DNA from: Escherichia coli
Lineage (GTDB): Bacteria; Pseudomonadota; Gammaproteobacteria; Enterobacterales; Enterobacteriaceae
Strand: one strand, 5' to 3'
DNA length: 62,585 bases
NCBI RefSeq assembly: GCF_002854065.1
Contig: NZ_CP024148.1
Position numbers: made by a program. Positions 54,401 through 57,400 of this stretch are shown piece after piece. Each line of letters begins with the position of its first letter. Position 1 is the first letter of the stretch.

Positions 54401-57400
54401 AGTGAACTGAAAAAGGCTGAACAAAGCAACGAACGTGAAAAGAGATTGCAAGCAATTAAAGAGTATACATCGTAATACAACGTAAAGCATTACTTGTAAA
54501 TACAACACACTACATCGTAATACCAGAAAACACCAACGCCAGCGAGCAACAAAAAGGGGCGATTAAGCCCCTGCGCGATGATTAATGACTTCTTTTTCCA
54601 GTGCCTAGCTCTGGATCAAGCCTGACGTTAAACACACCTTTAAAGGGCGCGTCAGGCTCCTTTCCGTCCTCCACACAGGACTGTAAATACAAATCAACCG
54701 ATGTTTTAAATTCCCGTTCCAGGTCAGCTAATGTTTCTGCCTCAAAAGTCACCAGATCTCGAATAAATGCCAGCTTTCCATGCAGGATATTATTTTCAAA
54801 ATCCGGCTCAACTGTACCTAAATATCCTTTATATTTTAAATGTTTCATAAAACCCCAGCCTCTTTCAAGAAAAGTTATCAGATAGAAGGGTGAAAGAAAA
54901 TACCAGGGAGCAGCGAGGCCACATACCCCTAAGCGCAGCGCAACCGCCGGAAAACGCACCACACTGTAAAGACAATAAAATCTTTACAACGTAAAGCTAA
55001 CTATGTAATACAACGCGCTACCCAATAAGAAAGGGAGAGCATGACACTCTCCCCATATATGACTCAAACTAAAGCATTATCCCGGTTATGCGCCCACCAA
55101 ATGATTTCGCTAATAATCCATGCTTCTATCGCGGGTGTTTTTACAGGTTCCCCATTTACAATGCGGTTTGCAAGCTCTATCATTTCACATACTGACATTT
55201 GAGAATCTCCAAAGATGCATCTGTCATTTGGTAACAGGCTGCCCCACAGCCTGTTACCAACCCCAAATTAGTATTTGCTGATTACTTTACCCTCCTTAAT
55301 CATTTTTATTAGTTCCTGTTCAGAATATTCTTTTCCGTGTTCCAATGTGGAATATATATTGCCAATAGTCCATACCCCACACTTTTTAATTTCTGCATTT
55401 AGCCAGGATTCATGCAGAATAAACAACGGTTCGCAATCATTTCCTTTTTCATAAACATAAATAGATTCGGTATCATTTCCAGAATCAGAAGTACCAACGA
55501 CTTTTTCTATATCGAAATGTTTTTTTAGAAAAGTTGTGAAATGCATTTTCATGCTCCTGCCGCTGAGCGGCTTTGGTGGTTGGGGACCATCCCCTCCCAA
55601 TGTGTTTATAATAGGTCAGAACTGACCTATTATCAAGTATTTTTCCCTCCATTCCTCAAAAAAAACGCCATCAAATACAGACAGTTACATTCATGTAATG
55701 CCCGACAGGGCATGGAAGGGGCGAAAGAAAATACCAGGGAGCAGCGGGGCCACATCGCCCCGAAGCGCGGCGCAGCCGCTGACGAACATACCAGGATGCA
55801 CAGGGCCATCCCTTCGCCCTGCAAAGCCAGAACAGACCAACAGGCCATGATCATGCTGATTTGCGCCGCAGAATGCCGCAGTTAGCGCGAGCGCCAGCGA
55901 GTTTACGCCGTCCTGGTGCATTGCAGCAGGGCGGGGCGCTGTACTGCGCGTGTGAGCGTCAGCGAGCTACGGGCGCAATTGCTCATTGTTCAATGCAACT
56001 GGGGCTATTAAGTCCAGCCATAAATTCAGTTATGGTTTTTGTAGCTTATTCCGTGATTTCGTCATACGTTAATTCTATTTTCATCTTAATATTCCTTAAT
56101 TACTTCCAGAATCAGAATTCTTTTTATTCCTTTTACAAAGTACATAATCAGGGTGTTCTCCAGCTAAAAGCAGAAGAAATTTAAACTCTACTGGTGTAAG
56201 TGCTGTACCGCTTGCAGTTCCGACAGGTTCTTCTTTGCGACGCCAGGTACGCGGACTCATGCTAAATATTTCGGCACATTCTTTCTGTGTCAGGCCAATT
56301 TTTTGCCGCAGACGTTTAATGTTTTCTGGTGTGTTTTCATTTGGCATTTTTTCCCTCACTCATTTCCTGAATCATCATAGAAACAATTTCTTTATCATTC
56401 TCTCTTAATCCGTCGCTGGCAAAGTCGATAGTGTCGAATGCCTTCTCATGAAAAACAAGATCGGCAACAGTTTTCACCGTTGCTTTCGTTTTTCCTAAAG
56501 TCGCAGACTTAGAAAAAGTTTTTACTCGCTTCACCAGATGAAACGTATCACCTTCTTTATTCAGATAATATTGTCTGTCACCTTTTCTTATCTTCATATT
56601 GAGATAGTCTCCCCTTTTAACAGTAAAGGGGCATATAGCCCCTTTCTTTTAACTTTTTCCGGTAATCAAATCGACATCTTCCTGATAAAGCTCCCCAAGA
56701 ACCGGAACAACGCCTTTTTTATAATCACGGATATTATGGCAGTCTGTAAAAATGACGACATAAGCCTCGCCTGTTTTTTCATGTTTAAGGCAAATTGTGC
56801 AAAGCGTCACGCGCACAACAGAAAACACATGACCAGTTGTAGAGACGATAGCAGGAAAAGTAGATTGTTTCATGTTTAACTCCTGCCGCTGAGCGGCTTT
56901 GGCGATTGGGGACCATCCCCTCTCAATGCATTAATAATAGGTCACAAATGACCTATTATCAAGTATTTTCTAGACGAGCTTTATTGAAAAATCATTTTCA
57001 ATAAATTCATCTAACATCTTTAATATACCAGCTTTATTTACGAAATCATCCTCCATAATTTCGATACTTGCTGATATTTCACATGTAAACTCAATGCTCC
57101 TGTCAAATCCCGCAATCCCAGCTAATGCAGACAGCATATGATAATTATCAATATTTATATTACCAATAAGAACTTTCATTTATCCTCCTGATATGGGGGG
57201 AATCCCCCCCATATTAAAAATTACAATCTGGTTGCAAGTCCGGTTTGTTCATTAAATAAACATTCAAGCTGATCACAATAAATATTATCAAATTTTGATA
57301 TTTCTTTTACTGTAGCTCCACGGACACGGGAAAATGTCACCAGGTATGTATCAGAGAAGGTTAATTTGATTTTAACCAAATTAATTCCCTTCATTGCAAA

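Follow-up and report, generated by a model that had tools for sequence, protein, structure and literature searches.

The DNA analyzed here, referred to as the window, is a stretch of 62,585 nucleotides (nt) from Escherichia coli contig NZ_CP024148.1. At positions 55500-58000 it shares 100% identity with many mcr-1 plasmids of the IncI2 group, ~60 kb in size, and the window itself belongs to the mcr-1-type IncI2 plasmids. Between 55.0 and 58.9 kb, the minus strand carries a row of small genes, termed p109, p107, p69, p74, p86, HTH (for the helix-turn-helix protein that it encodes) and p92, followed by an open reading frame (ORF) of 44 amino acids (aa). Repeats that resemble the CUP repeats of IncN plasmids stand before several of these genes. 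The locus is probably the regulatory core of a CUP-like early-gene regulon in the leading region of IncI2 plasmids, with the HTH protein as its autorepressor. Its genes and repeats are the following.

58438-58891, minus strand: full CUP-like repeat 3, with promoter 58544-58516 and operator 58520-58537; drives p109
58126-58455, minus strand: p109, 109-aa gene driven by full repeat 3; ends at a terminator-like hairpin (58068-58051)
57528-57983, minus strand: full CUP-like repeat 2, with promoter 57634-57606 and operator 57610-57627; drives p107-p69
57221-57544, minus strand: p107, 107 aa, phrog_9437; first gene behind full repeat 2
56970-57179, minus strand: p69, 69-aa acidic protein, WP_000866036.1, phrog_1585
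56856-56969, minus strand: partial CUP-like element (114 nt), with promoter TTGATA(56962)-N17-TATTAT(56934), operator TAGGTCAcaaaTGACCTA (56938-56955), leader, AGGAG, and the ATG of p74
56649-56873, minus strand: p74, 74 aa, WP_000814381.1; first gene behind this internal promoter/operator
56337-56597, minus strand: p86, 86 aa, WP_000702247.1, 'YaiB' family; basic, isoelectric point (pI) 9.4
56096-56347, minus strand: HTH gene, 83-aa XRE/MqsA-C-like protein, WP_001132407.1; last gene of the operon
55530-55985, minus strand: full CUP-like repeat 1, directly downstream of the HTH gene, with promoter 55636-55608 and operator 55612-55629; drives p92
55268-55546, minus strand: p92, 92-aa CcgD-like protein; the 44-aa ORF follows

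The genes of the locus are annotated coding sequences in hundreds of plasmids. A preliminary description of this DNA had called an 86-aa ORF at 56337-56597, a 74-aa ORF, and a 69-aa ORF at 56970-57179, and all three are found there on the minus strand. It had also called an 87-aa HTH gene that starts at GTG 56359, ends at 56096, and overlaps p86 by 23 nt. That ORF exists, and GTG 56359 gives its longest form. However, the start at ATG 56347 (83 aa) is favored, because it has GAGGGA 5 nt upstream, is the PGAP start in identical plasmids, and is the position from which homologues align. Thus, the overlap between p86 and the HTH gene is 11 nt.

The three full repeats and the partial repeat all terminate in the start codon of a gene. 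Each full repeat spans ~450 nt and consists of a GC-rich segment of ~300 nt, an AT-rich stretch, a promoter, and a leader. Every copy ends in a strong, near-consensus, sigma-70-like promoter (TTGATA-N17-TATTAT, whose hexamers match the consensus at 10 of 12 positions in the four copies), which is followed by a conserved leader containing two short hairpins, by AGGAG, and by the ATG. An 18-bp palindrome, TAGGTCA-N4-TGACCTA, occupies the interval from the -35 to the -10 hexamer; the window contains it four times without mismatch, whereas 0.14 copies would be expected by chance. No further site was found in the window when two mismatches were allowed. This palindrome is the candidate operator of these promoters. 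The partial copy provides the promoter of the p74-p86-HTH operon. Terminator-like hairpins follow p109 and the 44-aa ORF, and no terminator-like site was found after the HTH gene. A scan of 54500-59100 against Rfam produced no match.

The GC-rich part of the repeat (55640-55985, and also 57640-57983 and 58550-58891) is present in IncX4 plasmids with about 91% identity. It was considered as a possible Frpo element, and no convincing link emerged: weak 54-nt matches to IncF plasmids lie outside the leading region, and the two strands fold about equally. In plasmid pFORC82_3 (NZ_CP026644; locus L052, 2107-7510), the HTH-p86-p74-p69-p107-p109 block is present as a tandem duplication of 3,046 bp. 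Because the period of this duplication spans the stretch between successive copies of the CUP-like repeat, the repeats are probably recombination substrates.

The arrangement recalls the CUP regulon of pKM101 and R46 (IncN plasmids), which Delver and Belogurov reportedly described in 1997, with ArdK and ArdR as its repressors. As in the window, several repeats of ~0.4 kb precede small 'ccg'-type cassettes in the leading region of IncN plasmids, and in each repeat a GC-rich segment is combined with a strong promoter and a conserved leader. The region upstream of ccgD in R46 has the same layout and, when compared by eye, contains the short near-identical motifs CCTTCCATGCCCTG.CGGGCAT and, in the leader, ATCGGGAGG. 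In addition, p92 is 49% identical to CcgD, the product of a 'CUP-controlled gene' of R46. Thus, one cargo gene is common to two leading-region regulons that have unrelated regulators. In IncN plasmids a plasmid repressor also controls its own gene, as we propose for the HTH protein.

A blastn comparison of the window repeat with R46 detected no overall homology, and the 13-nt CUP consensus bound by ArdK is unlike the palindrome of the window. ArdK, which represses the CUP promoters of IncN plasmids, is a protein of the TrfB/KorA family (PMC6289460). A relationship of the HTH protein or p86 to ArdK or ArdR was rejected: hhalign gave the HTH profile a probability of <1% against both, and p86 showed no relationship. 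The IncN regulators also differ from that of the window in that the latter has an obligate overlapping partner gene, and neither ardA nor ardB is found in the region of the window under study. Because the regulators are unrelated and the repeats lack overall homology, the resemblance to CUP is one of system design, that is, a functional analogy and not membership in one family.

In the annotation of plasmid p1002-MCR1, the block is bordered on one side by the relaxase and MobC genes with their intergenic region, and on the opposite side by a ParA-like gene. The transfer features of the window are as follows.

45715-50028, minus strand: relaxase gene
50025-50366, minus strand: mobC
50440-50500: candidate oriT, between mobC and a rightward operon; inverted repeat GATTGTAACA...TGTGTACAATC, then the nick-like stretch GGTATCGTGCCTG on the plus strand

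Three plus-strand genes, the middle one of which encodes a TraL homologue, point rightward from the candidate oriT. We take this trio to be the counterpart of the traK-L-M leader operon of RP4, by analogy with RP4 and R64. On this analogy, the plus strand would be the one that is transferred, and DNA to the right of oriT would be the first to reach the recipient. The locus, whose genes lie between relaxase/oriT and parA and are oriented toward oriT, would be ~6 kb into the leading region, and what the preliminary description called an island corresponds to this inferred leading region. If the plus strand is transferred, genes on the minus strand would use the incoming strand as template and would be placed for very early expression. 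The same template-strand orientation bias is reported for leading-region genes (PMC11541004).

These features suggest how the locus might work as a regulon. A dimer of the HTH protein would bind the four palindromes and block RNA polymerase. A naive recipient would lack the repressor, and all four promoters would therefore fire when the plasmid arrives, producing the p74-p86-HTH, p107-p69, p109, and p92 cassettes. As HTH protein accumulates from the last position of its operon, the regulon would be shut down. Such negative autoregulation would result in zygotic induction, comparable to the action of ArdK on CUP promoters of IncN plasmids and of Aca proteins on acr promoters. We infer the steps of this chain, from palindrome to HTH binding to repression to zygotic induction.

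The families to which the HTH protein is related are in keeping with such a role. It matches Pfam Xre-like-HTH (PF20432, 1e-6, residues 10-62) and phrog_7950, 'transcriptional repressor' (1e-8), and its matches among PDB profiles are 3mlf, the MqsA C-terminal domain (5e-6), Aca3 (7e-5), PezA, and HipB. Judged by these alignments, it stands closest to the XRE domains of repressors, antitoxins, and Aca-type proteins. The earlier assignment of an MqsA-like HTH holds for the C-terminal HTH domain, which both Pfam and PDB profiles recover, and not beyond the level of this domain. The match to Pfam MqsA_antitoxin (PF15731, 1.2e-4) covers model positions 70-126 only, which is the C-terminal HTH, and the TIGR03830 score of 26.8 bits, obtained over profile positions 58-99 only, is below the cutoff of 61.8. 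MqsA-type antitoxins combine an N-terminal Zn-ribbon (CxxC...CxxC) with the HTH; the 83-aa sequence is limited to the HTH domain and lacks a CxxC pair. Membership in the Xre-RES/ParST group, whose antitoxins have a toxin-binding DUF2384 behind the Xre-like HTH and a RES-domain toxin as neighbor, finds no support either, in that the HTH protein has no DUF2384 and no RES protein is encoded nearby.

The same protein has been encountered in another context. Ahn et al. (Nat Commun 2025; PMC12612032) gave the name EcaR to a 252-bp ORF, described as an 'XRE family regulator', on pFORC82_3, which is an IncI2 plasmid. The HTH protein is identical to WP_001132407.1, which pFORC82_3 encodes in two copies through its tandem duplication. 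This gene is the only XRE-type 252-bp ORF of pFORC82_3; the other 252-bp coding sequence specifies a YafN/RelB-like antitoxin beside a RelE-family toxin. The HTH protein is thus almost certainly EcaR, to judge from plasmid, 252-bp length, and family name: the two would be the same 252-bp ORF and protein, of the XRE family and typical of IncI2. EcaR binds DNA, as seen by DNase I footprinting, and activates the chromosomal wecE promoter in a lacZ fusion; with MCR-1, it drives surface polysaccharide synthesis (PMC12612032). The paper is silent on autoregulation, palindromes, toxins, the overlapping p86 gene, and the leading region. As published, EcaR is an activator of host wecE, whereas we read it as a plasmid-directed regulator. 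On our reading, the activation of host wecE by this plasmid repressor would be a secondary activity directed at the host.

An IncL plasmid of the pOXA-48 type (L061, 2728-3207) encodes a 159-aa relative. It was considered as a fusion of p86 with the HTH protein, and this was rejected when two tandem EcaR-type HTH domains were found, which form a covalent pseudo-dimer. This tandem fusion is consistent with a dimeric binding unit. Among PLSDB records, the HTH family occurs in 4,247 and the p86 family in 1,104.

Related loci were collected by tblastn and a metagenome scan, which yielded a second IncI2 lineage, IncX3, IncX4, IncX6, and IncX8 plasmids, and 29 metagenome contigs. Thirty loci, representing IncI2, IncX3, IncX4, IncX6, and IncX8, were compared. 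Wherever a close HTH homologue is present, a p86 homologue lies immediately upstream, and the two genes overlap by 4-26 nt in all loci except one (L037, with an 18-nt gap). The p86 and HTH families are the sole ORF families found in 30 of 30 loci. Across groups, identity is 55-71% for the HTH protein and 30-61% for p86. In 19-20 loci, p86-HTH comes after genes for a J-domain (DnaJ-like) protein and a conserved 180-aa protein, both of which are missing from the lineage of the window. Examples of operons that contain these two genes together with p86-HTH come from IncX3, IncX4, IncX6, and IncX8 plasmids and the second IncI2 lineage (L004, 1843-3004; L005, 1842-3004; L006, 1075-2613; L007, 990-2396; L060, 1312-2733).

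The promoter design is likewise the same in every locus, with the palindrome in the same place. Its half-sites are uniform among the copies of one plasmid; between plasmids they fall into about eight classes (TAGGTCA, TACATCT, TACGACT, TACGTCT, TGCGCCC, TACCTCA, TGCGTCT, and ACCATCA), each of which is paired with a distinct HTH/p86 variant. Among 21 distinct site variants of class A, the half-sites are invariant, and changes are seen in the 4 bases at the center, in the -35 hexamer, and in the flanks. The predicted recognition helix reads M..R.WRRKEE in all class-A HTH proteins and V/I-G...WQKKE in most other classes.

The pairing of a small gene with an overlapping HTH gene had been taken in the preliminary description as a possible toxin-antitoxin (TA) module. 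In a toxin-first type II module of the higBA or mqsRA kind, p86 would be a new toxin and the HTH protein both its antitoxin and the autoregulator of the operon. As in MqsRA and HigBA, a small protein comes first and an overlapping HTH gene second, the HTH protein resembles the DNA-binding and dimerization domain at the MqsA C terminus, and a palindrome lies in the promoter upstream. The overlap of the two small genes is consistent with coupled translation, p86 and HTH co-occur strictly, and the HTH protein belongs to families rich in antitoxins (Xre-like-HTH, the MqsA C-terminal domain, PezA, and HipB). Moreover, leading regions do carry TA genes (PMC11541004), and hicAB is 2.5 kb away.

However, the toxins of MqsRA and HigBA have a ribonuclease fold of the RelE/ParE superfamily, and p86 resembles them in neither sequence nor fold. 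The remote-homology check against toxin families that had been suggested for p86 came back empty in Pfam, NCBIfam, PADLOC, and PHROGs, as did a PDB sequence search, and the structure model of p86 has no RelE, MqsR, or HigB neighbor, no other informative structural neighbor, and no toxin-like fold. The HTH protein, for its part, lacks the Zn-binding N-terminal domain and any other domain that could bind a toxin. The operator recurs in three further promoters, those of unrelated cassettes, which points to a regulon and not to a self-contained module, and the HTH protein is more conserved than p86. YuaN, a remote homologue of p86 on the F plasmid, has no HTH gene beside it. A delta-ecaR plasmid was made and conjugated (PMC12612032), a point that carries little weight because pFORC82_3 has two copies of ecaR. 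We consider a TA module highly improbable.

Searches with p86 itself recovered 45 close relatives, and a profile search of 1.84 billion proteins gave 19 representatives, none of them annotated. The remote homologue YuaN (NC_002483; L053, 21222-21494; profile E = 6e-19) adjoins an autotransporter gene on F and lies outside the leading region. Translation of p86 may be coupled to that of the HTH gene. For this reason, and because these plasmids never have p86 without the HTH gene, p86 most likely acts as part of the regulator or modulates it and is not interchangeable cargo.

A different account would make p86, p74 and p69, or all three, inhibitors of recipient defense systems, with the HTH protein only throttling their promoter. 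The preliminary description had raised this as an anti-defense gene with an Aca-like regulator, and the architecture does fit. As in Aca systems, a small XRE-type HTH protein is encoded last among small genes of unclear role, and an inverted repeat lies on a strong promoter of the operon, here between -35 and -10; the Aca3 match has E = 7e-5. Mobile elements with Aca systems share with this plasmid the need for a brief early burst of expression. Both position in the leading region and gene orientation (PMC11541004) agree with such a function, and the CcgD-like gene is held in common with the ardA/ardB regulon of IncN. However, no protein of the cassette matches PADLOC or a known anti-defense family, and no known Acr is present. 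Operators at four promoters make up a regulon and not one operon as in Aca systems. The upstream partner is conserved instead of variable: p86 stays attached to the HTH gene across incompatibility groups while the cassettes change, which argues that it is not variable cargo. For the HTH protein, this account largely overlaps with the autorepressor reading; the two differ only in the role of p86. An anti-defense cassette in this sense appears unlikely.

The acidic protein p69 had been put forward as a DNA mimic. Its acidity is confirmed by calculation (5 K+R against 12 D+E, net charge -7, pI 4.3). The mimic proposal found no support: p69 lacks the long, strongly acidic, B-DNA-like surface and the fold of ArdA and Ocr, it was assigned a generic ferredoxin-like/ACT-like fold, and no feature suggests mimicry. 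It matches phrog_1585 at 1e-10. Relatives with 25-37% identity are found in SSU5-like phage-plasmids and in Pseudomonas phages, including lytic ones, a distribution that was counted in favor of anti-defense. The occurrence of p69 in plasmid leading regions and in phages is compatible with a host-directed early function. Neither p69, p74, nor p107 has a Pfam match, and library scans with p74 found no family match.

The palindromes could also be read as structural nucleic acid elements, such as hairpins in the incoming strand or in read-through RNA, or as recombination sites, with EcaR being primarily an activator of the host wec operon, as published. Both arms change together between classes, so that the hairpin is preserved; the inferred transferred (plus) strand of the repeats folds better than shuffled sequence (z = -4.2); the repeats probably serve as recombination substrates, given the 3,046-bp duplication of pFORC82_3; and PwecE is the only experimental target of EcaR (PMC12612032). 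However, folding of the minus strand is nearly as good (z = -3.3), and in all copies and all classes the palindrome falls precisely between the -35 and -10 boxes of a near-consensus promoter. Within a class it is the half-site sequence that is invariant, not merely its pairing, and the center is free to vary. A hairpin of 11 bp would sequester half of each promoter hexamer, which speaks against an Frpo-like duplex promoter. In addition, genes of the ecaR type are common on plasmids that lack mcr-1, as well as on those of the IncX3 and IncL groups, which suggests a plasmid-centered role. We regard a purely structural function as very unlikely.

Several points weigh against an autorepressor at the center of the regulon. 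Identity of the HTH protein with EcaR is based on length, family name, and plasmid. EcaR has been published as an activator and not as a repressor. In the upstream region of wecE in MG1655, the best match to the palindrome has 9 of 14 positions, which is background level. Activation of wecE by EcaR may be a secondary activity or may involve another mode of binding. The nick site in oriT and the transferred strand were assigned by analogy with RP4 and R64. The co-variation of operator and HTH protein is confounded by shared ancestry, in that whole loci diverge together and p86 co-varies too. Furthermore, HTH proteins of classes C, E, and G have near-identical recognition helices (GVGLRTWQKK or GVGIRTWQKK), yet their half-sites differ. 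Specificity must thus reside partly in other residues or in p86.

A bolder proposal about p86, which we regard as a long shot, is that p86 and the HTH protein form a new kind of two-protein switch that times plasmid establishment. In such a switch p86 might be an anti-repressor, a co-repressor, or a subunit that confers specificity for a palindrome class. Alternatively, it might be a new toxin, and a single module would then link post-segregational addiction with the shut-off of the leading-region regulon. In either case the activity of EcaR as an 'ECA regulator' would be a by-product of a system that is conserved on the chief plasmids of mcr-1 (IncI2 and IncX4) and of NDM (IncX3).

Other elements were noted near the locus. 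An orphan HicB-like ORF (54582-54962; phrog_9151, 1e-35) comes after a 42-nt fragment of the GC-rich repeat (54888-54929), and is separate from an intact hicA/hicB pair at 53091-53735. A second palindrome family, TGTAAAG...CTTTACA, has six copies in the window (53815-53850, 53954-53989, 54960-54995, 58934-58969, 58959-58994, and 59004-59039), which cluster upstream of the ParA-like gene (59052) and around hicAB and a gene for a 147-aa protein. These palindromes are probably the operator of another plasmid regulator. The motif CTTTACAATGTAAAG occurs upstream of the DnaJ operon in an IncX3 plasmid (L060, about 1190-1210).

The genes mcr-1 and blaNDM-5 are carried mainly by plasmids of the IncI2, IncX4, and IncX3 groups. 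The literature searched does not cover the control of the genes that these plasmids express first. If the HTH protein is the master repressor of the regulon proposed here, EcaR would be primarily a regulator of plasmid establishment and not a dedicated regulator of host surface polysaccharides. The proteins p107, p69, p74, p86, p92, and p109 would then be candidates for functions in early establishment or anti-defense. The approximately eight operator classes, with their regulator variants, would constitute a natural set of orthogonal repressor-operator pairs, and these classes may bear on cross-talk or exclusion between plasmids that reside in the same cell.

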